Source: Escherichia phage EPIMRB01
Strand: one strand, 5' to 3'
Length of the DNA: 64,000 bases
Sequence record: PQ657784
The notes under the pieces are model-generated. The model did not search any database. It had not been told where the DNA came from and was given only the letters and a program-made list of their open reading frames with translations. Positions 18,232 through 38,730 of this stretch are shown piece after piece. Both the position numbers and the translations under genes were made by a program. How positions within the stretch are numbered: the first letter of the stretch is position 1; every line of letters begins with the position of its first letter.

Positions 18232-18270
18232 GTATAGTATCACAGAGGAACAGTCTTGTAAACAACTAAA
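18232..18270 (-). promoter_or_regulatory. T4-type early promoter with conserved leader TACTATACAACTATCAACTAC
   Basis: Reverse complement reads GTTTACAAGACTGTTCCTCTGTGATACTATACAACTATCAACTACGGAGG. Confidence 0.55.
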
Positions 18271-18571
18271 AGAAACTTCTTTCACAATTTTTTCCACTGA
18301 ACCACGCGCTCACTGCTTTCTTAGTCTCAGGAGCAGTGTTATCCATAAACCATTCAAAGGCAGCCTTTTTATGATTCTGGAGGGCTTCTCGGGCTTTAAT
18401 CTGCTCACGGTCTATTAACACTAACATATGAGCCTTTCTTGTCACCAAGGGCTTCTTATGATTTTTTGAATACTCCCAATCATTTGTCCATCGCATCGTT
18501 GTTGCGAACTGAAATACTGCTTCTTTAATTTTAGTTTCGTAAATTTCACGAGCCTTTGAGTATAACATCAT
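18266..18571 (-). CDS. Hypothetical protein, about 100 aa
   Basis: ORF; start chosen among clustered Met codons after a GGAGG RBS. Confidence 0.5.
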   Translation of the reverse strand: MMLYSKAREIYETKIKEAVFQFATTMRWTNDWEYSKNHKKPLVTRKAHMLVLIDREQIKAREALQNHKKAAFEWFMDNTAPETKKAVSAWFSGKNCERSFF

Positions 18572-18669
18572 TACCTCCATTTACCAGTTTAATTCTAGTC
18601 ATCTTTTTGATGGCAGTCCATATAATCTATTTCTGAACTGCCTTTTTATCTTAGAAGGCCTCTTATGAA

Positions 18670-19638
18670 TTATTTCAGAAGAGTAACCTCAGCGATTTCT
18701 TCCCAACCGTTTTTGTCGGTCATAATAAAGTCAGCAAGATAAAGAGCAGTACGCAGTGAAACATTGCGTAAACGATTAACATTGACTTTCATCCATGATA
18801 ATGCTTTATAAGTTTCTTCATCAGAAAGACCGCGCTTTTGCATCATGTCAGTTGAAAGAATAACATCTTCAACCCTGACCATAATTTCTTCATTAGTGTG
18901 AACACCTAAATCTAAATAAACTGAGCGGGACACTAATGCTTGTAAATGTGGAGCAAGTTTAGTACCACGGTCTAATTCGCGGTCAATGTCAACGTTTGTG
19001 ATAAAAACAATCGTTCCTTTAAATTCAAACTCACGCTCAATGCCTTTTTCTTCTAAGTAAGAAGATGCAGTGCTCCAGCAGACTTTACGGGTCTCTCCAG
19101 TGTCCAGAGCAGCTTTCAGAAGATTAAGAATGTCCATATCAGAGAAAACATCCACATCATCAATCAAAAGGACAGAATTCTCTTCACGATTATTCCAAAG
19201 CTGCTCATAAAGACCAATACCAGAGATTTTACCGTTAATGCTTTTATACTCAATGTATCCAATATCATTTGCTTTATTTAAAGCTTTATCTAAAGAATAC
19301 GTTTTACCAATACCTGCTGCACCAGAGATAATTAATGAACGAATGTTTCCGTTAATAATACCATTCGTCATCATTCCCATAACATTAAATCTTTTATTAA
19401 TGCGGGTTTTCATATCTTCATATGATTCTTTAACTTCTTCAACTTTTACACCGTCATATGAAATGTCTGATTTGTAAACCCAAACACCGCGACGTTTACC
19501 GTCAATTTCAACAAAAACTTTACCATCTCCTTGTGCATCTACCGGAGCATTATCAGGGAACCACTCACCTAAGAGTTCAAAAGTTCCAGAGATTTCTTTG
19601 CCAAAGTAGATACCCTTATTGATAGTTACAGTTTTCAT
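18670..19638 (-). CDS. P-loop NTPase (AAA+-like ATPase), about 322 aa
   Basis: Walker A GAAGIGKT; Walker B VLLIDDVD; sensor-like FITN; start at the Met after promoter and GGAGAAT RBS. Confidence 0.65.
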   Translation of the reverse strand: MKTVTINKGIYFGKEISGTFELLGEWFPDNAPVDAQGDGKVFVEIDGKRRGVWVYKSDISYDGVKVEEVKESYEDMKTRINKRFNVMGMMTNGIINGNIRSLIISGAAGIGKTYSLDKALNKANDIGYIEYKSINGKISGIGLYEQLWNNREENSVLLIDDVDVFSDMDILNLLKAALDTGETRKVCWSTASSYLEEKGIEREFEFKGTIVFITNVDIDRELDRGTKLAPHLQALVSRSVYLDLGVHTNEEIMVRVEDVILSTDMMQKRGLSDEETYKALSWMKVNVNRLRNVSLRTALYLADFIMTDKNGWEEIAEVTLLK

Positions 19639-19672
19639 TTTATTCTCCAAATCCGTATCAGTTGATAGTTGT

Positions 19673-19725
19673 ATAGTACCATAAAGCTTTATGCTTGTAA
19701 ACCGTTCTGTGAAAAATTTTTGAAA
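19673..19725 (-). promoter_or_regulatory. T4-type early promoter with conserved leader
   Basis: Reverse complement reads TTTTTCACAGAACGGTTTAC-N17-TACTATACAACTATCAACTG. Confidence 0.55.
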
Positions 19726-19726
19726 T

Positions 19727-19751
19727 AAAAAAAGGGAGCCCGAAGGCTCCC
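19727..19751 (-). terminator. Intrinsic terminator (GGGAGCC-UUCG-GGCUCCC followed by a U run)
   Basis: Plus strand aaaaaaagggagcccgaaggctccc immediately after the stop of ORF 19754..20767. Confidence 0.7.
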
Positions 19752-19753
19752 TA

Positions 19754-20767
19754 TCATTTATAATAACTTCGGTGGTTTTCAAGATAGACCTTCTCAAGGA
19801 AGTCATCCCAGAAACTCATATCTACTTTTTGCTGCATACCGTTCTTAGAAGCTTCAGTAGATGCTGCTTCTACTTGATCTACCACATCTTCCAAAAACTC
19901 TTGAACTATTTTAAATGGATGTTTACCCAACTTCACGTCGAGAATAAATGGAGCATCTTGGAGTGGATAAACCAAGTCGCCAGTTTTGTAAATTTCCAAT
20001 AGTTGGAGTCCACCACGACAAGCATGACTTAGTGCTTTCCAATCAATACCTTCATTAGCTTCGGCTTTACGAGCACGTTCACCATATTCAGCATCTAATT
20101 TGTTCAGTGACTGCTTAAGCTCAATAAGAGAAAGCGTTGTCTGATATTTACGACCCAGCACTGTATAGAACGTTTGTGGACCTGTTTTCTCATGATTATG
20201 GAACACCCATTCACAGAATTCGTTTTCTGGAAGACGATGCTTAATATCTTCAATTTTAGTGCGACGTTGTCCTTGTGTTCCATCTTCTCGGTAGACATTC
20301 CGTTGATCAGGAATTTGATTAATTACTTTCAACACATCACGTAATGCAGCTAGACGAGAACCTTTAACACCATATTTAGAGGCTTGCTTGCGGACATATC
20401 CTAAATAGGATTTCATGTTAGTCGTATAAAAACGAGAACGGTTGTCTTGAATAAACTTCCACACATCAGGCAAATCAGATTTAACCACTAGTTCAGGTGG
20501 AGTGTGAAGCATATCCAATGCTACAGTTTCACCATCTGCTGCTAATTTAAAGAAATACTTAAGACTATACAATTCGTGGTCAATATCATCTTTAGTGTTT
20601 TTAGATGATGTGTTGTTGGTATTTTTACTCATGTGCTCTTTGACATTTCCGATAAGAATATCGCGAGCAGGAGGAACAAAGATTTCTTTAAAATCTACAT
20701 CAGATTCTGGGGTAGAAGTTCCATAAAGATGACTACCGAAATAGCTTTTCATTACTGTTTTCATCAT
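19754..20767 (-). CDS. Pol-beta-superfamily nucleotidyltransferase-like protein, 337 aa
   Basis: N-terminal FGSHLYGTSTPESDVDF fits the G[SG]-x(9-13)-DxD signature; no other domain recognised. Confidence 0.55.
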   Translation of the reverse strand: MMKTVMKSYFGSHLYGTSTPESDVDFKEIFVPPARDILIGNVKEHMSKNTNNTSSKNTKDDIDHELYSLKYFFKLAADGETVALDMLHTPPELVVKSDLPDVWKFIQDNRSRFYTTNMKSYLGYVRKQASKYGVKGSRLAALRDVLKVINQIPDQRNVYREDGTQGQRRTKIEDIKHRLPENEFCEWVFHNHEKTGPQTFYTVLGRKYQTTLSLIELKQSLNKLDAEYGERARKAEANEGIDWKALSHACRGGLQLLEIYKTGDLVYPLQDAPFILDVKLGKHPFKIVQEFLEDVVDQVEAASTEASKNGMQQKVDMSFWDDFLEKVYLENHRSYYK

Positions 20768-21225
20768 TCAGCCTTATATTCAATAACAGGACATACTTTA
20801 GCTTTACGAGCTTTTAAAAATTCAACGATAATCGATTTCTTGGGTTGAATAGGAGGTAAACCTTTATTTTTCCTATCAATGTTTTCTACGTGTAAAGCAT
20901 AATCCTTTTTCCATTTATAATCTTTATATTTTTCACGCAAATGTACAGGAATAACAAATGAACCAATAATAAGTAAAACAACCAAAAGCGCAAGTATAAA
21001 TGCTGATGGAAGCAAAGTCCATAAACTACCGAAAATAAGCCATCGTTGTAGGCTTTCTGCACAAATAATTGTTAGCCCTACAAGTATAGCACATCCAAAA
21101 ATAGAAACGAAAAATGTAGGAATGACAATAGACCAAAAATATGCGCATAATGTCTTAGGTCGTTGCCATTCATCGTTAAACAATTTGAATAATTTATAGT
21201 GCCAAGAGTTTTCATTAATAATCAT
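20764..21225 (-). CDS. Membrane protein, 153 aa (two or more TM helices)
   Basis: Hydrophobic segments YFWSIVIPTFFVSIFGCAILVGLTIICA and LLPSAFILALLVVLLIIGSFVIP. Confidence 0.55.
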   Translation of the reverse strand: MIINENSWHYKLFKLFNDEWQRPKTLCAYFWSIVIPTFFVSIFGCAILVGLTIICAESLQRWLIFGSLWTLLPSAFILALLVVLLIIGSFVIPVHLREKYKDYKWKKDYALHVENIDRKNKGLPPIQPKKSIIVEFLKARKAKVCPVIEYKAE

Positions 21226-21227
21226 AA

Positions 21228-21749
21228 TTATCCTTTCATTGAAGGCGTAACGGTTGTTAAATACTTAATCATAGCTTCAGCTTCTGATTTTGATAATGAA
21301 ATTTCTTCACCGTTTTGACGAATAGAAATAAAATCCGGATGACGGTCACCACCAGCTTTTAAAACACACATATAAGTATCAGTTTCGCCTTCAATATTTG
21401 AAATGATTGAAGCAGTTCCGCATGAATGTGGTTTTTGATAAATCAATACAGCTTTTCTTCCACCGTTTGACTGTTCATAGGCTTTTAATACATCAAGCAA
21501 ATCAGTTCTTTTATCAATAGCTAAAATGTTATTTTCATCTTCAATGTTAAATCCTTCGGATACTTCATAAAGCGTTACCCATAAATCACCGATGTCAATA
21601 ACAGCATTTACTTTTCCACGGCTTTCAAGAGTATGACAAATTTTCTTGATTTCGTCATAACTCATTTTAATAATATCATCTCCTTGACTAAGAAAGATGT
21701 CATTTTTAAATTCAACACGAATTAAACCACTTCCACTTGAAATAAACAT
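21228..21749 (-). CDS. Hypothetical protein, 173 aa; paralogue of 21756..22310
   Basis: C-terminus SKSEAEAMIKYLTTVTPSM resembles TKDEAIALKTYLDSVIPTM of its neighbour. Confidence 0.55.
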   Translation of the reverse strand: MFISSGSGLIRVEFKNDIFLSQGDDIIKMSYDEIKKICHTLESRGKVNAVIDIGDLWVTLYEVSEGFNIEDENNILAIDKRTDLLDVLKAYEQSNGGRKAVLIYQKPHSCGTASIISNIEGETDTYMCVLKAGGDRHPDFISIRQNGEEISLSKSEAEAMIKYLTTVTPSMKG

Positions 21750-21755
21750 ATTTCC

Positions 21756-22310
21756 TCACTTTGAAATCATAGTTGGAATGACAGAATCAAGATAAGTCTT
21801 TAGCGCAATAGCTTCGTCTTTGGTAAATGTAATGATATGTGATCGAAAATCATCAATTTGACGAATAGATACTACATCTCCCTCTTCATAGCATTTTGAC
21901 ACATTTAAAATAGTTTCATCATTCTGATCGCAAGCGTTAGTAATAATAGCATTGCAATTTTTGAGCCATTTTAAACTATGTTTTCTTTCATTAGAATAAT
22001 AAAAATATTTAATCTTAGCTATAAAACTATCCCAATGGATAACTGATAAACACATTGACTCGCTTTTAATATTAAATCCTGGGCATGAAGAATAAAAATG
22101 AATTTTATGCTCATCATTAATGCTTACAATTTTATCAGTGTAAGCATATTCAATTTGAGTTAAACGAACAATTTCACTAGGTGTAAAATACAGCATATCG
22201 TCTTCTTGCGTCAAACGATACATATTATTTACTTTTTCTATAGCCAATTCACCAAAAAGTGGACTAACTTCTAATACTAATCGTTTCATATTAATCCTTT
22301 TTATTGGCAC
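21756..22310 (-). CDS. Hypothetical protein, 184 aa; paralogue of 21228..21749
   Basis: Shared C-terminal motif with the downstream gene. Confidence 0.55.
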   Translation of the reverse strand: MPIKRINMKRLVLEVSPLFGELAIEKVNNMYRLTQEDDMLYFTPSEIVRLTQIEYAYTDKIVSINDEHKIHFYSSCPGFNIKSESMCLSVIHWDSFIAKIKYFYYSNERKHSLKWLKNCNAIITNACDQNDETILNVSKCYEEGDVVSIRQIDDFRSHIITFTKDEAIALKTYLDSVIPTMISK

Positions 22311-22569
22311 GAATTTGTTCTAAAATTTTAGAGTATTCCTTTGTATCAGATTTACGTACAATCGATACACTATACGGCATACTATCGGTGTCTTTTATAA
22401 AGCGTTCCAAATGACATTCTAATAAAATTTCTGGATTATAAATCGTGTACATCAAATTACCTGTTGCTCCACGATATTGACAGATTTCTACTGATTGAAC
22501 ACCATTCCATAATTTTGTTAAGACCAAATCACCTACTTCTAATTTAGGAAAGCCCATGTTATTCACCAA
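22291..22569 (-). CDS. Hypothetical protein, 92 aa
   Basis: ORF. Confidence 0.45.
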   Translation of the reverse strand: MVNNMGFPKLEVGDLVLTKLWNGVQSVEICQYRGATGNLMYTIYNPEILLECHLERFIKDTDSMPYSVSIVRKSDTKEYSKILEQIRANKKD

Positions 22570-22744
22570 TTAAAGTTTCAATATAAGAATCAAGATTTAC
22601 TTTAGCTTCTTCCATAAGAGTTTTGTATTTAATCTTGTTGGCATGTCCGGAGAAAGCTGATTCATCAATAATTGTTGATGTATGAACAGCTTTACTATAC
22701 GTCTCAATTAATTCTCTTAATTTAAAAGCCTGCTCACTTGTCAT
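22559..22744 (-). CDS. Hypothetical protein, 61 aa
   Basis: First ORF after the early promoter at 22876-22910. Confidence 0.4.
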   Translation of the reverse strand: MTSEQAFKLRELIETYSKAVHTSTIIDESAFSGHANKIKYKTLMEEAKVNLDSYIETLIGE

Positions 22745-22875
22745 TACATACTCCTCTGAATCATATCAATAATGTTGTTCACCAAATTATAAGTAAACAT
22801 TGGGTAATTATATTGAATCATCACATACACAACAAACAAAACTTTCATTCTCTTCTCCTTGGCAGTTGACAAGAT

Positions 22876-22910
22876 TACTATACCATAACCTTGCCAACTT
22901 GTAAACCATT
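22876..22910 (-). promoter_or_regulatory. T4-type early promoter (GTTTAC-N17-GTATAGTAAT)
   Basis: Reverse complement reads GTTTACAAGTTGGCAAGGTTATGGTATAGTAAT. Confidence 0.5.
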
Positions 22911-23082
22911 AAATGACGTTTTCGATAAAATTCTGAAGCTTTGTATGAGCATCAACCATGATTTTCATTTCTTCCTTTGCGAAAGCTGTGCCTCTTTCAC
23001 GAGAAGAACATTCATAGTCAGAAACTGCATTAGCATATTCTTCAATTAGCTTCATTAAAAACATCTGCTTTTCAGTTTTCAT
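22909..23082 (-). CDS. Small hypothetical protein, 57 aa (below track cutoff)
   Basis: ATG at 23082 to TAA at 22909, read by eye: MKTEKQMFLMKLIEEYANAV... Confidence 0.3.
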   Translation of the reverse strand: MKTEKQMFLMKLIEEYANAVSDYECSSRERGTAFAKEEMKIMVDAHTKLQNFIENVI

Positions 23083-23266
23083 TATTCCACCTAATCATTT
23101 CAAGATATTGAACTAACTTAGCTTTGGATTTATCCAAATCCTTTTTAGCTGTTTCTATACCGTCGTATGAATATCCTTCACAATGCTCAACTGCTAATTG
23201 ATATGAATCTATTTCAACATCACGTGCTAATTTAATGATTTTTTCAAACTGTTCGTGTGTTAGCAT
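23072..23266 (-). CDS. Hypothetical protein, 64 aa
   Basis: ORF. Confidence 0.4.
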   Translation of the reverse strand: MLTHEQFEKIIKLARDVEIDSYQLAVEHCEGYSYDGIETAKKDLDKSKAKLVQYLEMIRWNNEN

Positions 23267-23268
23267 AC

Positions 23269-23508
23269 TTAAACTCTCGTATTATGATCGATAATTTCAT
23301 CAAGAAACATATCTAACGCTTCTAAAGCATTATCAACTTTAGTTTCAAAGTCTTTAATGCCTTTATTCGAAATACCCGATGAATACCAAGCAAAGTCAAT
23401 CAGCTCTTCATCTGCTTTACGAATTGAAGCCACTAATTCCTTGATTTTATCTGCTTGCTCTATACTAATCATTATTCTACCACATATGACAGAGAGAATA
23501 TTGCACAC
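23269..23508 (-). CDS. Hypothetical protein, 67-79 aa (start ambiguous)
   Basis: ORF; alternative Met at 23472 would remove the overlap with the upstream gene. Confidence 0.4.
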
Positions 23509-23660
23509 GCCATGTGAGTTGCAACTTCATCACACATATTATAACGTTTCTTAAGAAGTTCTACAAGTTCTTCACTAGTAACTTCATCCATGTCGACGAA
23601 AAAATCACCATTAATGATGACGTAGATATTTCCTTCTTGATTGAGTGCTTCAATTTTCAT
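23472..23660 (-). CDS. Hypothetical protein, about 62 aa (start at the Met after promoter and GAGGAG RBS)
   Basis: Track ORF 23472..23705 trimmed to MKIEALNQ. Confidence 0.4.
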
Positions 23661-23687
23661 GATGTTCTCCTCTTTATCCGATAGTTG

Positions 23688-23725
23688 TATAGTATCACAG
23701 CTCAAACGGAAAGTAAACCGGTAAA
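23688..23725 (-). promoter_or_regulatory. T4-type early promoter with conserved leader
   Basis: Reverse complement reads GGTTTAC-N17-GATACTATACAACTATCGGATAAAGAGGAG. Confidence 0.55.
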
Positions 23726-23728
23726 ATG

Positions 23729-23751
23729 AAAAAAGTCTCCCGAAGGAGACT
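23729..23751 (-). terminator. Intrinsic terminator (AGUCUCC-UUCG-GGAGACU followed by a U run)
   Basis: Plus strand aaaaaagtctcccgaaggagact just downstream of ORF 23756..24142. Confidence 0.65.
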
Positions 23752-23755
23752 AATG

Positions 23756-24142
23756 TTATTCGAGGGAAAGAAGATATTTACTCTGGTAAAACATTCCAGT
23801 AATATCATCTATCGTGCTTTGAATGGCTGGAGGCATTTCTTTATAAATGCTGTTAGATTGGTCTAGTATGCGATCAATCATTTTAATTGTGTCGGTAGGA
23901 AGTTTACTGGCATCTGGAATTGAAGGCGTGTATTTTCTACCAGAATACCCCAAATATTGTTCACCAAATTTATCAATCAAATCTGGCAATTCGGAGAAAA
24001 TAAAATCGTATGCTTTGTGTCTAGCATAACTTTTAGTTTCAAAATGTGCAGAATGAAAATAAGCTTGTGCAGCCATTAATAAACCTAAGTATTCATCTGC
24101 CTTTGAAGGTTTTCCACTTTGTGAAAAGTCGCTGAATTTCAT
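23756..24142 (-). CDS. Hypothetical protein, 128 aa (position of T4 rI.-1)
   Basis: ORF immediately downstream of rI. Confidence 0.5.
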
Positions 24143-24432
24143 TCAGTCTCCAATTTAATGTTCATAATTCTAGCGTATGATTGTGCCATCTCCGCGCCTC
24201 GTTCTATACATTCAAAATCAGAAGAGCACGGGTCATTTTTATAGGTCGTTCTCATAAAACTATAGAACTGTTCAGATGATTCTACGCTTTTATTTTCAAA
24301 AAGCATATAAACATGTCTAATACCAGATTCCATAAATTTATCAAAATGAGGATCGACATTCGCTTCAATCGATGGTGATAAAGCAAATGACAATCCTAGC
24401 ATGGCAAATAGTGCCGTTGCTTTTAAGGCCAT
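24139..24432 (-). CDS. rI: Lysis-inhibition regulator rI-like membrane/periplasmic protein
   Basis: 97 aa with N-terminal signal-anchor MALKATALFAMLGLSFALS; size and position next to tk match T4 rI. Confidence 0.65.
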   Translation of the reverse strand: MALKATALFAMLGLSFALSPSIEANVDPHFDKFMESGIRHVYMLFENKSVESSEQFYSFMRTTYKNDPCSSDFECIERGAEMAQSYARIMNIKLETE

Positions 24433-24444
24433 AAAGGCCTCCTA

Positions 24445-24657
24445 TCATTTTTGTCCTGTATTTACTTTATGCCGATGCACGGCCTTAACTTTATCAAGGT
24501 ATTTTTCAAAATTTCGCAATCTAGTATAGTCTGCCGGAGATTGGTTGAGTGATACTTCTCGACGCAAAGCTGAAATGATATTTCCAACTTCCCTACGAAT
24601 TTCATCTAATTGAAGCACAGTAAGATTGCGAAGTTGCTTTTCAGTTAATTGTAGCAT
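24445..24657 (-). CDS. Hypothetical protein, 70 aa
   Basis: ORF between tk and rI. Confidence 0.5.
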
Positions 24658-24699
24658 ATATACCCCTTTAGTTAGATAAACCTATTTATAACTTTTGCA

Positions 24700-25281
24700 C
24701 TAACCGAGCTTTTTAGTTAATTCGTTCCAGTGTTTTCTACACAAAGAAACATAAATTTCATCACCAATACAGATTTGATTACCTTCTTTAACTGGTGTTC
24801 CATCTTCCATTAATCGAGCTGTCATAATCGCTTTTTTGCCGCAATGACAAACTGCCTTTAGTTCAATAAGTTTATCTGCAATCGCTAAAAGTTCTTTAGA
24901 ACCTTCAAACAATTTTCCAGCGAAATCAGTCCTTAATCCATAAGCCATAACAGGAACATTATATGTATCAACAATTCGACTTAATTGATGCACCTGTTCA
25001 GTTTTTAAAAACTGAGCTTCATCTACAAATACGCAATGAATATCTTTTTGTGCTTCAGCCCATTTATAGAACTCGAAAATATCCATATCATCTGTAATAA
25101 TATTCGCTTCCTGCTTAATTCCAATGCGAGAAACAACTTCACAGACAGAATCGCGAGTATCAATAGCAGGCTTAAGAACTAATACACCCATTCCACGTTC
25201 TTTATAATTATGTGCAGCAGTCAAAAGAGAAGCAGATTTTCCAGCATTCATTGCTGCATAAGTAAAAATTAAACTCGCCAT
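24700..25281 (-). CDS. tk: Thymidine kinase
   Basis: 193 aa; P-loop MNAGKS; C-terminal Zn-binding Cys pairs typical of type II TK. Confidence 0.92.
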   Translation of the reverse strand: MASLIFTYAAMNAGKSASLLTAAHNYKERGMGVLVLKPAIDTRDSVCEVVSRIGIKQEANIITDDMDIFEFYKWAEAQKDIHCVFVDEAQFLKTEQVHQLSRIVDTYNVPVMAYGLRTDFAGKLFEGSKELLAIADKLIELKAVCHCGKKAIMTARLMEDGTPVKEGNQICIGDEIYVSLCRKHWNELTKKLG

Positions 25282-26853: not shown

Positions 26854-27391
26854 TTACTATTTCCAAAAGTTTATTATTTTTAAGGTAATTAGCCTTTTCT
26901 AGGACTTCAGAAGCATATTTAGAACCTGCTTTAACATTCCATCCCGAATTATAAGAGGATATTGCTTTTCTTATATCGCCCTTATGTATATTTAACCAAT
27001 AAGAAAGTTCAATGTACGCCCAGGAAGCTGAATTGGATCGTTTATTCAACATTCTTTTTATTTCAGCATCGGTCATATTATAACCAAGTTCCTTAACTCT
27101 CGCTCGCATAGTAGGCAAATAATTTTGGAACATTCCGTAAGCATGATGTTTTGGTTTAGATTTTAAATTAACTCCGCCAGAGCTTTCTTGCCATAAAATA
27201 GCAGCCATTATATGACCTAATCCGCTCTTGTGGATATTTTTGTGTGTTTTATATTTTCCATCCTTAGAAAATTGTTCCCCGAATTGATACGCGTAACGCA
27301 TGTTATCGAGTTGGACATTACTGAAAGTATGCTCGGAGCTATGTGCCATCATTGAAATGGCCAATAGACCAGCGAGTAGTGCTTTTCTCAT
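26846..27391 (-). CDS. Secreted lytic-transglycosylase-like protein, 181 aa
   Basis: Signal peptide; SLT-like motifs LWQESSGG, GMFQ, SYNSGW. Confidence 0.6.
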   Translation of the reverse strand: MRKALLAGLLAISMMAHSSEHTFSNVQLDNMRYAYQFGEQFSKDGKYKTHKNIHKSGLGHIMAAILWQESSGGVNLKSKPKHHAYGMFQNYLPTMRARVKELGYNMTDAEIKRMLNKRSNSASWAYIELSYWLNIHKGDIRKAISSYNSGWNVKAGSKYASEVLEKANYLKNNKLLEIVND

Positions 27392-27398: not shown

Positions 27399-27860
27399 TC
27401 ATTGAGTTTTAATTACTGCTTTAGAAGCCTTTCCTGGTAAACGACGACTGTTGATAATTGCCATCCTACATTGAAGTGACGGGTCTTTGAACTTCTCATT
27501 AGGTTTACAAACTGTAAATCCAAGCCAAAGATTTCCATCTGTAATTTCTAAACGTCCAGGACGATATTCAACTCCATCAATAAAATCCTCATCAATGTCA
27601 GGACGCGGAGGCATACTCAGGAATTCATTAACTTCTAAAACATGGTCTTTTATTTTATGGAATAATTCAAAAACATATGTCTCATCAATCTCCCGTTGAA
27701 TTGCACGATCAAGAAGATGTTGAGAATATTTTAGATGAAACGATGAGACCCCTGCTGCTTTTGATGCCTCACGAATCTCATTGTTAATTTGACGAAACTC
27801 CGACTCAAAGTGACGACGAAGCTTATTTCGACGGATAAAAACTTCTGTATTGATAGTCAT
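27399..27860 (-). CDS. regB: Sequence-specific endoribonuclease RegB
   Basis: 153 aa; sequence MTINTEVFIRRNKLRRHFESEF matches T4 RegB as recalled; preceded by an early promoter. Confidence 0.88.
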   Translation of the reverse strand: MTINTEVFIRRNKLRRHFESEFRQINNEIREASKAAGVSSFHLKYSQHLLDRAIQREIDETYVFELFHKIKDHVLEVNEFLSMPPRPDIDEDFIDGVEYRPGRLEITDGNLWLGFTVCKPNEKFKDPSLQCRMAIINSRRLPGKASKAVIKTQ

Positions 27861-27888
27861 GTTATTCTCCTCTTAACTGATAGAAAAA

Positions 27889-27925
27889 TTATACCACAGT
27901 CAAGAGGAAAAGTAAACAGTTATTC
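27889..27925 (-). promoter_or_regulatory. T4-type early promoter for regB (GTTTAC-N17-TGGTATAAT)
   Basis: Reverse complement reads CTGTTTACTTTTCCTCTTGACTGTGGTATAAT. Confidence 0.6.
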
Positions 27926-28198
27926 TTTAAATCTAGTCAATTTATTCATAGACTTTGAAACTTCTGCACGAACCTCATGTAGATTTTTGAGCTGTTCAAG
28001 ACGCTGCGTATAGTAAGCAATTTCATCTTCTTCGAGACAGTCCTGTGAATCTTCTTTAAGATAACGTGCATAGTCCTGAAAAGCGTTACGAACTACTTCC
28101 TGGAAATCATCAAGACTTTGAATTTTCTTAGGAGCAGCAGATACACGACGAGGGGCAGTATAATACTCATAACCAAACCCTGCGCTTAATTGAGCCAT
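27920..28198 (-). CDS. Hypothetical protein, about 92 aa
   Basis: ORF trimmed to the Met giving an ATGA junction with the upstream gene. Confidence 0.45.
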
Positions 28199-30051: not shown

Positions 30052-30525
30052 TTATTTGAACGATTTAACGTACTGAATAGAACCTTTACTATTTACAAAG
30101 GCAATTTTACCATTTTTATTATACATTGTAGCAGTACGTTGATAGCCATAAGTTTGTTTACCAGATTGATAACCAACTAATGCAAAATTATCTTCACCCA
30201 TTTTATTCTGTTTAGCGCGAATGCGTTCATGACCATGTGCCATAAGAACCTTAGCATCACCAGTTGCAATGGATCGACGAGTTTTTTCATCTTCAACTGT
30301 ATTAACAAAGTCGTCAAATGAATCAAATTTAGCATGAGATTTATTATACAATTTTCCATCTACTGCATAATTATATCCCTGTACATCCATCTCAACTTCT
30401 GTACCATCATCCAATACAGCAGTAATTTTCTGTCCTTTTTTAAATTTCAAAAGATCAGTAAAAGATTCAGCAATAATTTGAGAATTAATAGCTGCTTCAG
30501 TGATAAATTCTTGATATGTTTTCAT
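30052..30525 (-). CDS. Internal (capsid-packaged) protein with capsid-targeting sequence, 157 aa (IPII/IPIII position)
   Basis: N-terminus MKTYQEFITEAAINSQIIAE matches the T4 internal-protein targeting leader with protease-type cleavage after I-x-E. Confidence 0.7.
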   Translation of the reverse strand: MKTYQEFITEAAINSQIIAESFTDLLKFKKGQKITAVLDDGTEVEMDVQGYNYAVDGKLYNKSHAKFDSFDDFVNTVEDEKTRRSIATGDAKVLMAHGHERIRAKQNKMGEDNFALVGYQSGKQTYGYQRTATMYNKNGKIAFVNSKGSIQYVKSFK

Positions 30526-30579
30526 GTGTTTCCTTTAAATATTTTAATTAGTAATTTGTCTCTTCAAGCAACTGTGAAT

Positions 30580-30613
30580 ATACTATCACAATTCTAGGAG
30601 AAAGTAAACAACT

Positions 30614-30615
<2 letters not shown>
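30580..30615 (-). promoter_or_regulatory. T4-type early promoter (GTTTAC-N17-ATAGTATAT)
   Basis: Reverse complement reads GTTTACTTTCTCCTAGAATTGTGATAGTATAT; overlaps the lysozyme stop. Confidence 0.5.
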
Positions 30616-31582
<967 letters not shown>

Positions 31583-33410: not shown

Positions 33411-34004
33411 TTATTTCAGAGAATTAATGTATTCCTGAACATCGGCAGAGGTAGTTTCAACCCCAGAAATATTGCCATTAAAGGTTTCAACTCGAGCAAG
33501 AGTATCTTCAATATCAACTTTAGTCAGTGCTGCAATTTCAACTACATCATCGGCAGTACTAATTCCAAGGGCATTTGCCGCACGAGTTTCACGGATATAT
33601 TCCAATTTAACTGCAAGTTCTTGGCGAGCATCATCTAACTCAACTACTTTCTTGGCGATTTCAATTCGCATTTCAGCATAACCATCAGCTTTAGTAGTCA
33701 ACTGTTCAGCTGTTCGACGATATAGTAAACCGAGCTTAGCATGCATTGTTACATCTTGACCTTCGGAAAGAAGTTTACGAATTTCACGCTCTTTTGATTC
33801 GGCTTGTCGATTCTTTTCGATAACAAGTTCACGAATACGTTTTTCTTCATTAATAGATTTAACAGAAGCAGTTTTTAGATCTTTAATTTTATCAAGTAGT
33901 TTTGCTGCTGCAGCAGTATACTGTTCTTCAACAGATAAATTTTTAGCCATAGCAGAACCAAGTTTAGTGCGAATAAACTCAACAATTTTCTTCAGTGTGT
34001 TCAT
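33411..34004 (-). CDS. Coiled-coil protein, 197 aa
   Basis: Long charged helical repeats; no enzymatic motif. Confidence 0.5.
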
Positions 34005-34047
34005 AGTATTTCCTTAGGTTGATTAAAAATTAAAATCTGTGAAAGAA

Positions 34048-34578
34048 TTATATCATGCTATTTAAGAGATGTAAACTATTTTTAATTTTACAAATTCGTT
34101 CAGCTTCTTCAACAGCGGCGGCGATAATGCTTTTAGCTATAGGAGTACTAATACTAGTAGCTTTTACACTTAACACGATTTCTTTATCTTTACCAGGCCA
34201 ACCCCACGATTTTTCACCGTGAGTGCCTTTAATTACAGCAGACACCTCAAGTGAGCATCCATTATCATATGTTTTTACATTGACAACCCAAGGTTCACTT
34301 TTCTCAATCGGTTTCTCAATCGGTTTATCCCAGTAAATATTAAGAATACGTGGGACATCAAATTTGGCAGGACAAATCTTAACCGTAAGACCTTCGCTTT
34401 CTAGCCAATTAATAAGAGGGCGTTCATACAGGCGACGATGTGGGCTTGGGATTCGACAAGCCTTATGTCCGTTGCTTGCGGCTTCACTAAGCTGTTCTAA
34501 TACCTGCTTTTGCATTATTGATAAGATACCATCAAAAGATTTTTCGGAAGTTTCATTCAGTTCGGTATAAAGAGACAT
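34048..34578 (-). CDS. Hypothetical protein, 176 aa
   Basis: ORF. Confidence 0.5.
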   Translation of the reverse strand: MSLYTELNETSEKSFDGILSIMQKQVLEQLSEAASNGHKACRIPSPHRRLYERPLINWLESEGLTVKICPAKFDVPRILNIYWDKPIEKPIEKSEPWVVNVKTYDNGCSLEVSAVIKGTHGEKSWGWPGKDKEIVLSVKATSISTPIAKSIIAAAVEEAERICKIKNSLHLLNSMI

Positions 34579-34633
34579 AACAGTTTCCTCAAATTATAGG
34601 CTCATAATATCTCAATCATGAGCCTATGTAAAC

Positions 34634-34897
34634 TTATTTCATATTATTGAAATATTCTTCTGCGATTTCGTCGTTATCGTGGTAAACTTTAGAAGACAGT
34701 TTAACATAACCTTCAGCGGTGAACATGTTAATCACAACCTTTACAGTATACCACTGACCATCTTCATTACCCATTACTGCATAGGTTTCAAACATCGGAT
34801 GGTCAGGACCGATAACTTTAATATCATTCACTGTACGACCGAAATCTTCTGAAACGCATTTCATAAAGAAGTTGAACAGTTCGCCGTAATTATCCAT
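34634..34897 (-). CDS. Hypothetical protein, about 87 aa (start at the Met after promoter and GGAGAAT RBS)
   Basis: Track ORF 34634..34951 trimmed to MDNYGELF. Confidence 0.45.
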   Translation of the reverse strand: MDNYGELFNFFMKCVSEDFGRTVNDIKVIGPDHPMFETYAVMGNEDGQWYTVKVVINMFTAEGYVKLSSKVYHDNDEIAEEYFNNMK

Positions 34898-34942
34898 TTT
34901 ATTCTCCAAGTTGTTTTTCTGTATCAGTAGTTGATAGTTGTA

Positions 34943-34995
34943 TAGTACCATGGAAGAACGGGGATGTAAACCGTTTTGTGAAAAAATTTTTAAAA
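34943..34995 (-). promoter_or_regulatory. T4-type early promoter with conserved leader
   Basis: Reverse complement reads AAAAATTTTTTCACAAAACGGTTTAC-N17-GGTACTATACAACTATCAACTAC. Confidence 0.55.
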
Positions 34996-35104
34996 AGTTT
35001 TAGGGAATTCTAGGGCAGGGATGGGCAATTAAAGGATAGGATAATATATTATAAAGGGTATAAACTAAATGATGCCTAGAGAGGTCCAGAAAGGCCTAGA
35101 TATC

Positions 35105-35132
35105 AAAAAGCCCCAACCTTTCGGTCGGGGCT
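35105..35132 (-). terminator. Intrinsic terminator (AGCCCC-loop-GGGGCU plus U5); copy 1 of an exact 28-nt repeat
   Basis: Plus strand aaaaagccccaacctttcggtcggggct just after the stop of ORF 35139..35612. Confidence 0.65.
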
Positions 35133-35138
35133 AAAATG

Positions 35139-35612
35139 TTATTTGATTTGTTTAGCAGACCAAATGCGGTCTTTGATGATTTTTTGGATGTCTTCAACAT
35201 ACTCAAGAGAGTGAGCATGTGGGTTATCTTTGAAACTATAAGCACGAGCTAGCTTTTGGCCTTCGGTTTTGATTACTAAAAGCTCTTTAAGGATAGCTTC
35301 ATATTTAGCGATAATTCCTTTAACAATATTTTTTTCTTGTGCAGCTTTAGGATCTGCTTTAGGAGCAGGTTTACCCGAAGCCTTTGCAAAAGCAGCGCCA
35401 GTAGCAACTAAACTTTTCCAGGCCATACTAACTGCATTTCCCGTAAATCCTTCTGCTTTCATGTCGCGAGCAAACTGGAATCGTGATTCGTCAGAAGCAT
35501 CTTTATAGGAATATTTACCCGCTGCAATGGCTGCTTTTGCGACAGCTTGAATTTCGGTGCTAGATGCTTCATTTAACACCGCTTCATTTAAAAATTGAGC
35601 ATATGATTTCAT
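35139..35612 (-). CDS. Internal-protein-like protein with capsid-targeting-type leader, 157 aa
   Basis: N-terminus MKSYAQFLNEAVLNE resembles the internal-protein leader MK(T/S)YxEF(I/L)xE with an L-x-E cleavage context; Ala/Lys-rich body. Confidence 0.6.
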   Translation of the reverse strand: MKSYAQFLNEAVLNEASSTEIQAVAKAAIAAGKYSYKDASDESRFQFARDMKAEGFTGNAVSMAWKSLVATGAAFAKASGKPAPKADPKAAQEKNIVKGIIAKYEAILKELLVIKTEGQKLARAYSFKDNPHAHSLEYVEDIQKIIKDRIWSAKQIK

Positions 35613-35652
35613 CTTATTTCCTGTTTTAATTCGTGGATTTAATATACTACTA

Positions 35653-35660
35653 TATTTATA
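35653..35660 (-). promoter_or_regulatory. Late promoter TATAAATA upstream of the internal-protein-like gene
   Basis: Reverse complement of 35653-35660 is TATAAATA. Confidence 0.5.
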
Positions 35661-35662
35661 CT

Positions 35663-35690
35663 AAAAAGCCCCAACCTTTCGGTCGGGGCT
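35663..35690 (-). terminator. Intrinsic terminator; copy 2 of the exact 28-nt repeat
   Basis: Identical sequence to 35105-35132. Confidence 0.6.
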
Positions 35691-35693
35691 AAG

Positions 35694-35996
35694 CCTTGCG
35701 GCAACCTTGTCGGGGTTCCACCTGCTAAGGCAAGTGTTTGTACGAAACGCCGGGATTCGAACCCGGTTATTAAGCAGTTGACGCTACTCAATATTTTTAA
35801 AAGGCCATATCTCGACCATATCCGAACGTTCCGTCAAAAACGCTACTCGGCTTACGGCAAAGATATTTCCTCGAATCGATAATTCGGTGCGCCGTTTCTG
35901 CTGTGATAGTAAAGAATCAGAACACAGTAAAACTGTGGGAGAAACTATACTCCAGGGAACATCAGTCCGACGACTTACCGGTAGCGACCCGGTTTC
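35694..35996 (-). ncRNA. Non-coding region next to the tRNA cluster containing a tRNA-like T-arm; candidate small stable RNA or tRNA remnant
   Basis: No credible ORF; 35749-35768 cgccgggattcgaacccggt is a perfect T-stem-loop (GGTTCGAATCC) without a full cloverleaf. Confidence 0.3.
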
Positions 35997-36347: not shown

Positions 36348-36363
36348 ATTTTCCTCACTTAAT

Positions 36364-36439
36364 TGGTCGAGGCAGTAGGGATCGAACCTACGACCTAGGA
36401 CTTAGAAGGTCCTTGCTCTTCCTTCTGAGCTATGCCTCG
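36364..36439 (-). tRNA. tRNA-Arg (anticodon UCU)
   Basis: Cloverleaf folded by eye: 7-bp acceptor, D-stem GCTC/GAGC, anticodon loop CTTCTAA, T-loop TTCGATC, encoded CCA. Confidence 0.8.
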
Positions 36440-36443
36440 GATT

Positions 36444-36518
36444 TGGCGGACGTGATAGGATTCGAACCTATAACCAATCGCTTAACAGGCGATCGCTCTG
36501 CCATTGAGCTACACATCC
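36444..36518 (-). tRNA. tRNA-Asn (anticodon GUU)
   Basis: Acceptor GGATGTG/CACGTCC, D-arm AGCTCAATGGCAGAGC, anticodon loop CTGTTAA, T-arm, CCA. Confidence 0.7.
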
Positions 36519-36522
36519 AAAT

Positions 36523-36609
36523 TGGTGGGGAGTGATGGAGTCGAACCACCCGAGTCGCAATGACAATGAATTTACAGTCCACACCGCTACCTCTACGGGA
36601 TAACTCCCC
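36523..36609 (-). tRNA. tRNA-Tyr (anticodon GUA), long variable arm; D-arm non-canonical
   Basis: Perfect acceptor GGGGAGT/ACTCCCC, anticodon loop CTGTAAA, T-arm GGTGG-TTCGACT-CCATC, CCA; D-stem pairs only weakly. Confidence 0.6.
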
Positions 36610-36618
36610 AAATTAATT

Positions 36619-36693
36619 TGGTGGCCCTGGGTGGAATTGAACCACCATCTGGCGATTATGAGTCGCTTGCTTGAACCTTCCAGCTACAGGGCC
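36619..36693 (-). tRNA. tRNA with CAU anticodon (tRNA-Ile2-like; Met not excluded)
   Basis: Acceptor GGCCCTG/CAGGGCC, anticodon loop CTCATAA, T-arm, CCA. Confidence 0.7.
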
Positions 36694-36694
36694 T

Positions 36695-36770
36695 TGGTGC
36701 TGATTGACGGAATCGAACCGCCGACCTTCTCATTACAAGTGAGTTGCTCTTCCTTCTGAGCTAAATCAGC
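36695..36770 (-). tRNA. tRNA-Thr (anticodon UGU)
   Basis: Acceptor GCTGATT/AATCAGC, D-arm AGCTCAGAAGG, anticodon loop CTTGTAA, T-arm, CCA. Confidence 0.8.
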
Positions 36771-36775
36771 AAAGC

Positions 36776-36865
36776 TGGCGGAGGCGATAGGATTTGAACC
36801 TATGAGTCGCCGGAGCGACTGCCGGTTTTCAAGACCGGTGCATTAAACCACTCTGCCACGCCTCC
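36776..36865 (-). tRNA. tRNA-Ser (anticodon UGA), long variable arm
   Basis: Acceptor GGAGGCG/CGCCTCC, anticodon loop CTTGAAA, long extra arm, T-arm GGTTCAAATCC. Confidence 0.8.
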
Positions 36866-36867
36866 AG

Positions 36868-36941
36868 TCTCCATACAAGGATTTGAACCTTGGACCTCCT
36901 GATCCCAAATCAGGCGCTCTACCAAACTGAGCTACACGGAG
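36868..36941 (-). tRNA. tRNA-Pro (anticodon UGG), CCA not encoded
   Basis: D-arm AGCTCAGTTTGGTAGAGC, anticodon loop TTTGGGA, T-arm GGTTCAAATCC; acceptor includes G-U pairs. Confidence 0.7.
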
Positions 36942-36951
36942 TAAATTAAAT

Positions 36952-37025
<74 letters not shown>

Positions 37026-37030
37026 AAATT

Positions 37031-37119
37031 TGGTGCGAGAAGTGGGACTCGAACCCACAAGGAAATCATTCCGCAGCATTTTAAGTGCTGTGCCTTTACC
37101 AATTTGACCATTCTCGCGC
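37031..37119 (-). tRNA. tRNA-Leu (anticodon UAA), long variable arm
   Basis: Acceptor GCGCGAG/CTCGCAC, anticodon loop CTTAAAA, long extra arm, T-arm GGTTCGAGTCC, CCA. Confidence 0.8.
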
Positions 37120-37191
37120 TGGGAATAAAGGACTTGAACCTTTGCATCCTGGAATCAAAATCCAGTGCCTTACCAACTTGGCTAATTCCCA
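37120..37191 (-). tRNA. tRNA-Gln (anticodon UUG), CCA not encoded
   Basis: Acceptor TGGGAAT/ATTCCCA, anticodon loop TTTTGAT, T-arm GGTTCAAGTCC. Confidence 0.75.
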
Positions 37192-37277
37192 ATTATTAAC
37201 AAAGGCTCTCAAACAAGAACCCTTGATGATAGAGGGTATTAATCAGTGCGGTATGAGTTAATAATAACAAATAATTC

Positions 37278-37793
37278 TTAAAGCAAATCAACCATTTTAA
37301 CAGTCGGCAAAACAATTTCTTCTTCAATATAAGTAAATTCTACATGTTCAACTACACGCAAGAAATCATAGTCATAGTATTCAGAAGCATGACCAAGAAT
37401 ATCAATGAGGCCTTCAGATATCTTATTACCATTCACAAAGAATAAATCAAATACACGTTCTTCATCTTCTTCGGATTTATTACCAAGGTCAACTTCTATG
37501 TCAAAGAGCTTTTTAATGAATTCTGGATAAAGTTGGTCTGAGAACAGTCCTTCAACCAAATATTCATATATAAAAAGCTCTTGCTCGCTGAACAAACCAT
37601 TACCACAATAACGTTCAACTTTGGTACTAGAATGACGACTCTTAAACTTCTTCAAGAGATATTTAAATTGTTGGAGCTCATTCTCTTCTACGCCAAACAG
37701 TGTTTTGGTTTTATAGTTGTCACCATCATTTTCACAGGTAGTGACATCAATTACGTAACCCTTAGGAATTGTGCTGCCTAAACGAATATACAT
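37278..37793 (-). CDS. Hypothetical acidic protein, 171 aa
   Basis: ORF upstream of the tRNA cluster. Confidence 0.5.
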   Translation of the reverse strand: MYIRLGSTIPKGYVIDVTTCENDGDNYKTKTLFGVEENELQQFKYLLKKFKSRHSSTKVERYCGNGLFSEQELFIYEYLVEGLFSDQLYPEFIKKLFDIEVDLGNKSEEDEERVFDLFFVNGNKISEGLIDILGHASEYYDYDFLRVVEHVEFTYIEEEIVLPTVKMVDLL

Positions 37794-38089
37794 TTGTTCA
37801 CCATATTAATATAAGTATATTTAATACATTCAAGACCCAAAGGATTCTTGAAAATATCATATTCAAGAGGACCTTTTTCTGTTTCAATAAAGAAATCAAA
37901 ATTTACTGTATTAAATTTACGGTCTTCCTTCACTAATTTAACTTGAGAAGATGAACGGTCAATGTAAACCTTTTCAACTTCAAAACATGTTAAAATGCCA
38001 TAATCATCAATCAAGGCTTTAGCAGCATCTTGATCATATTTATATCCATTTTCAACGGACGATACTTTCGCATAAAGAATCATTATCAA
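37778..38089 (-). CDS. Hypothetical protein, 103 aa
   Basis: ORF. Confidence 0.5.
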   Translation of the reverse strand: MIMILYAKVSSVENGYKYDQDAAKALIDDYGILTCFEVEKVYIDRSSSQVKLVKEDRKFNTVNFDFFIETEKGPLEYDIFKNPLGLECIKYTYINMVNKCIFV

Positions 38090-38466
38090 CCTTCATCAAC
38101 AATAGTATGCGTATTGGCATTTACAATTTGCCACCAATCAAAGCGATTAGAACCATACATCGGTTTGTTTTCATTTTCTTTAATAATGCCACGGAGTTCA
38201 TCTTCAGTGGCGGCTTTCGCGATTAAATCAGCATATCCACCACGAGGATAATAATTATCACCTGCAAAAAGTAAAAAGTTTGGTTTAATGTTATTGAACT
38301 CTTCAAGAGTAATAACTTTTCCTGTTGGTTGAACAATCTCTACATATTTATATCCCAATTTTTGAGCAGCATCTACTGCTTCAAGCAAAGTATCATGAGC
38401 CCATCCTATTTGACAATTCGGCTTTTTAGATGGATTAGCCTGATAATCCGCGTACACTTTATACAT
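38086..38466 (-). CDS. Hypothetical protein, about 126 aa (start at the Met with AAGGTGA RBS)
   Basis: Track ORF 38086..38499 trimmed to MYKVYADYQ. Confidence 0.5.
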   Translation of the reverse strand: MYKVYADYQANPSKKPNCQIGWAHDTLLEAVDAAQKLGYKYVEIVQPTGKVITLEEFNNIKPNFLLFAGDNYYPRGGYADLIAKAATEDELRGIIKENENKPMYGSNRFDWWQIVNANTHTIVDEG

Positions 38467-38467
38467 T

Positions 38468-38653
38468 CTATTCACCTTTAGAAATTTTATCCATAACAAT
38501 AGCGATTAAACCAATTAAAAATGCTACTACAAGTGAAAAAACATTTTCTGCTGTAGTCAATAATCCGCATATAAATCCAACAAACATTGAAAAACTAAAA
38601 GCGGAAGCAGAAATTGCAATAGCAACATTTCGAATTAATTCACAACGTTTCAT
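38468..38653 (-). CDS. Small membrane protein, 61 aa
   Basis: Two hydrophobic segments; GGAGGAGAAT RBS; directly after an early promoter. Confidence 0.5.
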   Translation of the reverse strand: MKRCELIRNVAIAISASAFSFSMFVGFICGLLTTAENVFSLVVAFLIGLIAIVMDKISKGE

Positions 38654-38680
38654 TTTATTCTCCTCGGTAGTTGATAGGGT

Positions 38681-38730
38681 AATAGTATCACAACTAAAAC
38701 CCTATGTAAACAACTTTGTGAAATATTTAT
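38681..38730 (-). promoter_or_regulatory. T4-type early promoter with conserved leader variant
   Basis: Reverse complement reads AATAAATATTTCACAAAGTTGTTTAC-N17-GATACTATTACCCTATCAACTAC. Confidence 0.55.

Follow-up and report, generated by a model that had tools for sequence, protein, structure and literature searches.

This study revealed that the repeated elements on the minus strand of a 64,000-nucleotide stretch of Escherichia phage EPIMRB01 (PQ657784; this whole stretch is hereafter the window) are most probably paralogous promoter-leader cassettes, the segments of which have been reshuffled and homogenised by recombination and which are built on the known early promoters (Pe) of T4-like phages. 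We assign this reading a probability of about 0.85. The sites themselves have the composition of sigma-70-dependent early promoters, a type already described. The initial annotation, in which the repeat had been noticed, was right in this sighting, and the nature of the repeat is that of recombining T4 early promoter-leader cassettes, which are already known.

The window has a G+C content of about 35%. As far as about 42 kb, its genes are on the minus strand and its GC skew is negative. The promoter repeat family is likewise on the minus strand and is non-random. GTTTAC-N18-TACTAT was found six times, every time on the minus strand, against 0.05 expected, which bears out the claim of the initial annotation that at least five early promoters share their -35 and -10 elements. 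Five of the sites are those given there, and the sixth, at 39053, lies upstream of ipI. The five sites of the initial annotation also came out as the largest family (D1, 48 nt) of an independently run repeat finder. Two exact copies of the 21-mer TACTATACAACTATCAACTAC are present, at 18239-18219 and 34947-34927 (minus), and a copy with two mismatches occurs at 19678-19658 (minus); at up to three mismatches, the search gave three matches in the window and 0.00 in 100 shuffles. The copies at 23694 and 38687 match at 17 of 21 positions by hand count. The leader, which had been described as identical, is so in the copies at 18239 and 34947 only, the others having two mismatches or 17 matching positions. 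The six sites precede orthologues of T4 nrdC.8, nrdC.10, mobD.5, e.8, trna.4 and ipI:

18203-18287, minus strand: early promoter-leader cassette of the nrdC.8 orthologue, orthologous to T4 by alignment; -35 GTTTAC 18263-18258; TGn and -10 TACTAT 18239-18234; predicted +1 18227; transcribed part of the motif 18227-18219; Shine-Dalgarno (SD) sequence GGAGG 18218-18214; ATG 18205-18203
19636-19726, minus strand: cassette of the nrdC.10 orthologue; -35 19702-19697; -10 19678-19673; predicted +1 19666; ATG 19638-19636
23658-23742, minus strand: cassette of the mobD.5 orthologue; -35 23718-23713; -10 23694-23689; predicted +1 23682; ATG 23660-23658
34895-34995, minus strand: cassette of the e.8 orthologue; -35 34971-34966; -10 34947-34942; predicted +1 34935; leader of 38 nt; ATG 34897-34895
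38651-38735, minus strand: cassette of the trna.4 orthologue; -35 38711-38706; -10 38687-38682; predicted +1 38675; ATG 38653-38651
39015-39101, minus strand: ipI promoter, the sixth TACTAT site; -35 39077-39072; -10 39053-39048; predicted +1 39041; ATG 39017-39015

The mobD.5 cassette retains the motif to +3 only (ATCGGATAA), and the discriminator of the trna.4 cassette is TACCCT, not ACAACT. The spacer of the nrdC.10 cassette holds a perfect 14-nt palindrome, CATAAAGCTTTATG (19694-19681, minus), which recurs unchanged in two unlinked T4 promoters, those of nrdC.10 and frd.3. The six proteins encoded downstream of the TACTAT promoters, which had been described as unrelated, indeed showed no significant mutual similarity (blastp against a six-sequence database, best E = 0.018).

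With regard to the anatomy of the cassettes, an A/T-rich region is followed by GTTTAC, 18 nt ending in TGn, TACTAT, six bases, ATCAACTAC or a variant of it, an SD and the ATG. All six sites exhibit a -35 GTTTAC(A), a -10 TAnnnT placed 17 nt from TTTACA and a TGn before the -10, together with an A/T-rich UP-like region at about -40 to -60, and each stands in front of an early gene and in the same orientation as that gene. They fit the published promoter of the T4/PST promoter-early stem-loop (PeSL) cassettes, TTTACW-N17-TAYWAT (PMC4122927), as well as the early -10 motif TGTG(A/G)TA(C/T)(A/T)AT, which was derived from T4 start sites mapped by differential RNA sequencing. Host RNA polymerase would fire these promoters immediately after infection, and the working parts of the cassette would be the A/T-rich UP element, the -35 GTTTAC(A), the 18-nt spacer ending in TGn, TACTAT, the discriminator, a short G-poor initial transcribed sequence (ITS), the SD and the ATG.

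TACTAT is the -10 hexamer itself, as TGn stands directly before it. The 21-mer therefore extends from -12 to +9 and comprises the 6-nt hexamer, the 6-nt discriminator ACAACT and about 9 nt, AUCAACUAC, that are predicted to be transcribed; by the predicted start, 12 of its 21 bases are promoter and about 9 are leader. This corrects the earlier description of some 21 nt of transcribed leader immediately after the -10, the first six bases of which are the -10. The conserved segment does not, however, lie wholly upstream of the start, a result that had been named as one that would overturn the description. The motif had also been said to end near a GGAG: it abuts one at 18239 and lies close to one at 38687, whereas at 34947 the GGAG is located 20 nt further on.

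The +1 was placed at the A that is the seventh nucleotide after the -10 hexamer, giving a context of T at -1 and A at +1. When applied to the T4 cd.3 promoter (-10 starting at 133307), the same rule gives 133295, which equals the number in the note "early promoter Pe133295" of the T4 record; we infer that this number is the start coordinate. The predicted starts in the window, 18227, 19666, 23682, 34935, 38675 and 39041, correspond to 53907, 55348, 58744, 70660, 73536 and 73903 in T4, and the predicted leaders measure 22-38 nt. As T4 has the same six promoters, the feature belongs to T4 itself and not to this isolate. The stretch at 17000-25000 is 100% identical to Escherichia phage AUBRB02 (OY979771.1; record coordinate + 3987 = window coordinate) and shows 95-99% identity to several hundred T4-like (Tequatrovirus) genomes.

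The wider promoter class was examined in T4 on a set of 37 promoters matching GTTTAC-N17/18-TAnnnT in front of a gene. In their profile, -3 C, -2 C, -1 T, +1 A, +2 T and +3 C hold 0.5-0.7 bit each, and a weaker signal reaches to +7; the profile also has an A at -40 in 89% and A/T tracts from -54 to -41. In the 22 promoters with a -10 other than TACTAT, the signal remains at -3 to +2 and is gone beyond +3. The TACTAT sub-family comprises the other 15, of which 8 carry TACTATACAAC. Since the signal beyond +3 is limited to TACTAT promoters, CTATC around the start is a feature of the class, and the whole of ATCAACTAC is a feature of the sub-family. The CTATC core around +1 is common to T4, RB69 and JS98-like phages, with CTATCAA at -2 to +5 as the common denominator of the three genera. 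From general knowledge of sigma-70 initiation, we infer that this core is functionally constrained by start-site context and by escape from very strong promoters; C-3 C-2 T-1 A+1 T+2 C+3 A A would accordingly be held class-wide through start-site selection and promoter escape.

The genera differ in the promoter version that they have multiplied. RB69 has about seven copies of TATAGT-AGTCCTATCAAAAC, with CTATC at -2 to +3 in most of its promoters, and a single ACAACT-type promoter in its first 80 kb, which is the e.8 orthologue; this RB69 e.8 promoter is almost identical to that of T4. The RB69 family, (T)AGGACTATGT-TATAGT-AGTCCTATCAAAAC, found for example at 76774, 76421, 69216, 67921, 57651 and 18982 of the record, is distinct from the TACTAT-ACAACT family of T4 and suggests lineage-specific homogenisation. 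JS98-like contigs favour TACTAT-AGACCTATCAACTAC. In IMG/VR, TACTAT-N4-CTATCAACTAC was matched 57 times; a proper -35 accompanies 46 of these matches, downstream of which at least 15 different gene families are found.

Chimeric copies, the evidence of exchange between cassettes, were observed in T4 as exact runs of identity that are discordant among the paralogues. The nrdC.10 and frd.3 promoters are identical in register over 58 nt (-55 to +3), the whole 18-nt spacer included, and then diverge completely. The frd.3 promoter in turn matches motA over 42 nt (-70 to -29), while the spacers of this pair are only 50% identical. The imm.1 promoter shares 43 nt (-15 to +28) with ndd.6, their spacers being unrelated, and 40 nt (-25 to +15) with e.8; e.8 and motA share 34 nt. 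Between imm.1 and ndd.4, 17 of 18 spacer positions are common and the discriminators are different. In the case of imm.1 (-10 at 27056) and ndd.6 (-10 at 167062), which are unlinked, identity covers the entire leader and, past a single mismatch, picks up again in the first codons (ATGAAAATCGCT); the unit that is exchanged can thus extend into a coding sequence. Because this discordant and sharp-ended identity spans positions that the polymerase does not read, it points to recombination or gene conversion among paralogous cassettes. PeSL cassettes were proposed as recombining promoter units, the T4/PST pair among them, by Arbiol et al. 2010 (PMC2839356) and Comeau et al. 2014 (PMC4122927), and early promoters with an SD and a start codon at their 3' end are repeated in the window genome (repeat families D1, D2, D3 and D6). 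Homologous recombination or gene conversion of the PeSL type would keep reshuffling and homogenising the cassette segments. The spread of a promoter-leader cassette by recombination, one of the possibilities raised in the initial annotation, is well supported by the runs in T4 and agrees with the PeSL concept (PMC4122927).

Several points weigh against this reading. Terminator-like stem-loops, which together with a promoter make up the PeSL composite, were found next to two cassettes:

19733-19752, minus strand: AGGGAGCCTTCGGGCTCCCT, an intrinsic-terminator-like stem-loop with a T run behind it, directly upstream of the nrdC.10 promoter, with which it forms a PeSL-type composite
23734-23751, minus strand: AGTCTCCTTCGGGAGACT, a terminator-like stem-loop with a T run behind it, upstream of the mobD.5 promoter

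The scan, which covered 17500-24500, gave none at nrdC.8; the T4 orthologues of the e.8, trna.4 and ipI promoters have no adjacent terminator stem-loop, and in the T4 set one is present at 9 of 37 promoters. Synteny breakpoints between the window and T4 are not enriched at cassettes, with 3 of 30 within 60 bp and 2.3 expected (P = 0.41); several of these breakpoints are homing-endonuclease insertions in T4. The CTATCAA core persists in three genera with different flanks, for which ancestry alone is insufficient. Finally, the T4 set was defined by pattern and position and not by an experimental promoter list, and the exact starts of the six promoters are predicted from the spacing, the T-1/A+1 context and the Pe133295 match.

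We also identified an inverted repeat that brackets the -10, which may be the only new element of these promoters. In the window, such repeats lie on the minus strand at 18254-18208, 22900-22863, 27912-27864, 34628-34595, 38706-38673 and 39069-39036, and the arms of several are as follows:

18254-18240 (spacer) with 18222-18208 (leader/SD), minus strand: complementary arms of nrdC.8, -21.7 kcal/mol
22846-22930, minus strand: mobD.2 early promoter, -10 TATAGT 22882-22877, arms 22900-22886 and 22876-22863 around the -10
27399-27860, minus strand: regB gene (endoribonuclease RegB)
27858-27941, minus strand: regB early promoter of the same class, -10 TATAAT 27893-27888
27912-27894 (spacer) with 27884-27864 (leader/SD), minus strand: arms of regB, 18 pairs, -22.5 kcal/mol
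34576-34657, minus strand: early promoter at the e.7 position, -10 TATTAT 34609-34604, arms 34628-34619 and 34603-34595 around the -10
39069-39057 and 39047-39036, minus strand: arms of ipI around the -10

When each T4 spacer (-31 to -13) was compared with its own -6 to +18 segment, perfect repeats of at least 7 bp were found in 13 of 37 promoters against 0.8 in permuted pairs (maximum 5 in 2000 permutations), and repeats of at least 8 bp in 8 of 37 against 0.14 (maximum 3 in 2000). The duplex energy of spacer and own leader was -11.8 kcal/mol, whereas permuted pairs had -7.4 +/- 0.41 kcal/mol (0 of 5000). Among 27 predicted promoters of RB69, repeats of at least 7 bp were present in 8 against 2.9 (P = 0.0018), and the energy was -9.9 against -7.5 +/- 0.48 kcal/mol. 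At the regB promoters of four lineages, the helix between the spacer and the SD region is kept with different sequences: the T4 type has 18 pairs, and the other lineages have CTCCTCTAGTTG / CAACTAGAGGAG, CTCCTGTAAG / CTTACAGGAG and CTCCTGTAG / CTACAGGAG. In the formal count, 85.6% of cells are paired against 34-56% for slid partners, and four pairs are changed on both sides; as the T4 row of the MAFFT alignment is one column off register in the 3' arm, these counts understate the T4 helix, which was taken from the duplex fold. The statistical pattern, with permutation tests in two genera and covariation in regB, looks solid. A literature search returned no description of such a repeat bracketing the -10 in the early promoters of T4, which is weak evidence of novelty, older T4 papers being mostly outside its coverage. 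It is a tentative proposal of ours that a repeat of this kind is built into one third to one half of the early promoters of T-even phages, depending on the threshold, and that it would serve either to restrict translation or RegB cleavage to the promoter's own transcript or, at the DNA level, in early shut-off.

The recombining-cassette reading has to be weighed against other explanations of the conserved sequence. The initial annotation had also raised a common post-transcriptional control through the 5' leader. In this reading AUCAACUAC would be a dedicated operator through which the accessory genes are co-regulated, either as a RegB context or by the binding of a translational repressor or enhancer. 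We regard this as very unlikely, and the proposed link of RegB to the 5' motif is contradicted by published experiments. The motif is indeed transcribed, from +1 to +9 by the predicted start, and in a subset identity continues beyond it, to +19 between T4 e.8 and motA and to +28 between imm.1 and ndd.6. However, the RegB/S1 site is the 11-nt GGAGRAYARAA, in T4 typically GGAGAAUAAAA (Durand et al. 2006, PMC1702504), and its determinant is the A-rich 7 nt located 3' of GGAG, with no specific upstream information required (PMC1702504; review PMC3014915). It is because of this location, with nothing needed upstream, that the post-transcriptional reading is unsupported. T4 motA, a classic RegB substrate, carries the same leader start as the window family, yet a motA RNA cut back so as to start at GGAG remains a substrate, although its cleavage is slower (PMC1702504). 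GGAG is present in five of the six leaders, but the distance between the motif and GGAG varies from 0 to 20 nt, the nrdC.8 and mobD.5 leaders have a GGAG with a poorer 3' context, and the ipI promoter is followed by GGAA. The regB gene lies within the window, and its own promoter is an example of those with a different ITS behind which good RegB sites also occur. The known RegA operators overlap the AUG and not the 5' end, as published. Moreover, a search of window positions 1-42000 at the Rfam gathering threshold returned tRNAs only, with no family matching the promoter leaders, and a literature text search for the motif gave matches only to unrelated primers and siRNAs. A perfect RegB 11-mer is found in three of the six leaders, at the end away from the 5' motif:

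19638-19648, minus strand: perfect RegB/S1 11-mer GGAGAATAAAA, doubling as the nrdC.10 SD (consensus of PMC1702504)
34897-34907, minus strand: perfect RegB/S1 11-mer GGAGAATAAAA, doubling as the e.8 SD (consensus of PMC1702504)
38653-38663, minus strand: perfect RegB/S1 11-mer GGAGAATAAAA, doubling as the trna.4 SD (consensus of PMC1702504)

nrdC.10, e.8 and trna.4 are thus probably RegB targets through this SD-proximal 11-mer and not through the 5' motif; RegB control would act through a separate element, GGAGAAUAAAA, at the other end of the leader. Convergence, in which each promoter was selected independently towards one optimum for host RNA polymerase, with neither shared ancestry nor recombination, is the least probable of the explanations considered. 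It could account for the strong class-wide consensus, including -3 to +3, and for the CTATC core in three genera, but not for identity at positions without a known polymerase contact, such as the nrdC.10/frd.3 spacer (18 of 18 positions), the motA/frd.3 upstream block (26 of 26) or leaders that are identical down to the ATG. In addition, the TACTAT variant of the -10 co-varies with the downstream motif, and different families were expanded in different genera.

Two further explanations concern the inverted repeat. The ITS/SD region could be conserved as the 3' arm of an RNA hairpin with the spacer as its 5' arm, which would form in read-through RNA only, mask the SD and shield GGAG, so that translation would proceed only from the promoter's own early transcript. 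The restriction to read-through transcripts follows from the 5' arm lying upstream of the local start. We consider this possible but rather doubtful. The T4 duplex energies and repeats of at least 7 bp exceed those of permuted pairs, and the pattern was replicated in RB69; in T4, stability is higher on the sense than on the antisense strand (p = 0.011) and 27 of 212 pairs in strong helices are G-U, which points to the RNA level, although the strand asymmetry was not reproduced in RB69. The regB helix kept in four lineages with different sequences also argues for pairing, as do the changes between T4 and AUBRB02, which keep or extend it: two substitutions in nrdC.8 lengthen the helix by two pairs, and those in mobD.2 and ipI convert A-U or G-C pairs to G-U. 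Nevertheless, most copies of the motif have weak helices (nrdC.10 -2.4, e.8 -7.8 and trna.4 -9.3 kcal/mol), that of nrdC.8 alone being strong, and the SD is left unpaired in the ipI, ipII and mobD.2 repeats. Modelled SD accessibility was 0.39 in read-through RNA and 0.68 in the own transcript (p = 2e-7), but the own spacer masked the SD no better than foreign early-promoter spacers (0.39 and 0.40, respectively) in the modelled read-through RNA. Upstream terminators and promoter hairpins showed only a trend towards being distributed in a complementary way (p = 0.07). The same logic is established for the late promoters of e, soc, 49 and I-TevI, whereas the basis here is sequence and modelling. 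According to the other explanation, which we hold to be improbable, the dyad around the -10 acts at the DNA level, as a site for a dimeric or structure-specific protein or through supercoil-dependent extrusion, and contributes to the shut-off of early promoters, the mechanism of which is described in reviews as not understood. Perfect palindromes that lack G-T positions and have the same energy on either strand (ipII 14 bp, mobD.2 13 bp, denV and ipI 10 bp) and the absence of a strand bias in RB69 are consistent with such a role. The arm sequences, however, differ between promoters, so that there is no common sequence-specific site; loops of 8-17 nt make cruciform extrusion costly, and many T4 helices need G-U pairs, which are unusable in DNA.

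Besides these cassettes, further early promoters were located in the window:

7258-7344, minus strand: 55.6 early promoter, -10 TATTAT 7296-7291
15222-15306, minus strand: nrdC.4 early promoter, -10 TATAAT 15258-15253
30523-30633, minus strand: ipIII-like early promoter, -10 TAGTAT 30585-30580
34002-34100, minus strand: e.6 early promoter, -10 TATAAT 34052-34047

A UP/-35 block is common to the 55.6, trna.4 and ipI promoters (repeat family D2). The ipIII-like promoter (30604-30558, minus) shows the dyad symmetry AATTGTGA-N8-TCACA centred on the -10, which is also present in the T4 ipII and ipIII promoters. This dyad resembles TGTGA/TCACA half-sites of the CRP or lac-operator type and is probably a by-product of the TGTGA extended -10.

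The window also differs locally from T4, and three of these differences, at 34021-34576, 30052-30494 and 35100-35692, agree individually with the PeSL reading. The open reading frame (ORF) at the e.7 position replaces T4 e.7 in a block (34021-34576) bounded by the leaders of the e.7-position and e.6 promoters, which fits a classic cassette swap. Just upstream of the e.8 promoter, in 35100-35692 (minus), an insertion of 523 bp that T4 lacks lies between the two copies of a 35-bp direct repeat, which contains a GC-rich terminator stem-loop (35100-35134 and 35658-35692, 94% identical). The insert contains a late-promoter-like sequence, TATAAATA, and an ORF beginning MKSYAQFLNEA, a start that resembles the capsid-targeting N-terminus of T4 internal proteins. 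At 30052-30494, 441 bp stand in place of T4 denV, ipII and most of ipIII (1441 bp), and at about 46 bp from the ipIII-like promoter cassette the sequences are homologous again; a different internal-protein gene therefore lies behind the same promoter and leader. The tRNA cluster at 36367-37191 (minus) comprises nine tRNAs at the Rfam gathering threshold, compared with ten annotated in the AUBRB02 record; in relation to the eight of T4, it has Asn, Tyr and Met instead of Ile, and no segB gene.

The finding re-identifies the T4 early promoters and the known recurrence of their cassettes before accessory genes, and it corrects the long shared leader. The AUBRB02 record, which contains no promoter features, can now be supplemented with predicted starts, RegB sites and two terminators. 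If the promoter-embedded helix does separate own from read-through transcripts, it would be a general extra layer in the control of T4 early genes; likewise, the inverted repeat, if its proposed role is true, would offer a concrete and mutable feature for probing early-gene shut-off, which reviews call not understood.

In comparison with the T4 early promoters, the window sites have the same UP element, -35 GTTTAC, TGn, TAYWAT -10, orientation and position upstream of early genes; there is no essential difference, with 1-3 substitutions per about 110 nt by alignment. With PeSL cassettes they share the repeated A/T-rich region with an early promoter, SD and start codon before small accessory genes, which provides homology patches for recombination; in contrast, a terminator stem-loop is adjacent at only two of the six window promoters, and breakpoints relative to T4 show no enrichment at cassettes. 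As for RegB/S1 sites, three window leaders likewise end in GGAGAATAAAA doubling as the SD, whereas the conserved motif is situated at the leader's 5' end, where no requirement was found (PMC1702504). In a review of T4 post-transcriptional control, the promoter-in-hairpin arrangement is listed only in connection with late promoters, namely those of e, soc, 49, I-TevI and a few endonuclease genes. In e, soc, 49 and I-TevI the control was shown experimentally, whereas the promoters in the window are early, their 5' arm is the -35/-10 spacer and the arrangement is predicted from sequence; in the known cases, the 5' arm of the SD-masking helix lies upstream of the start, which leaves only promoter-proximal transcripts open, and nrdC.8 and regB in the window have this geometry.

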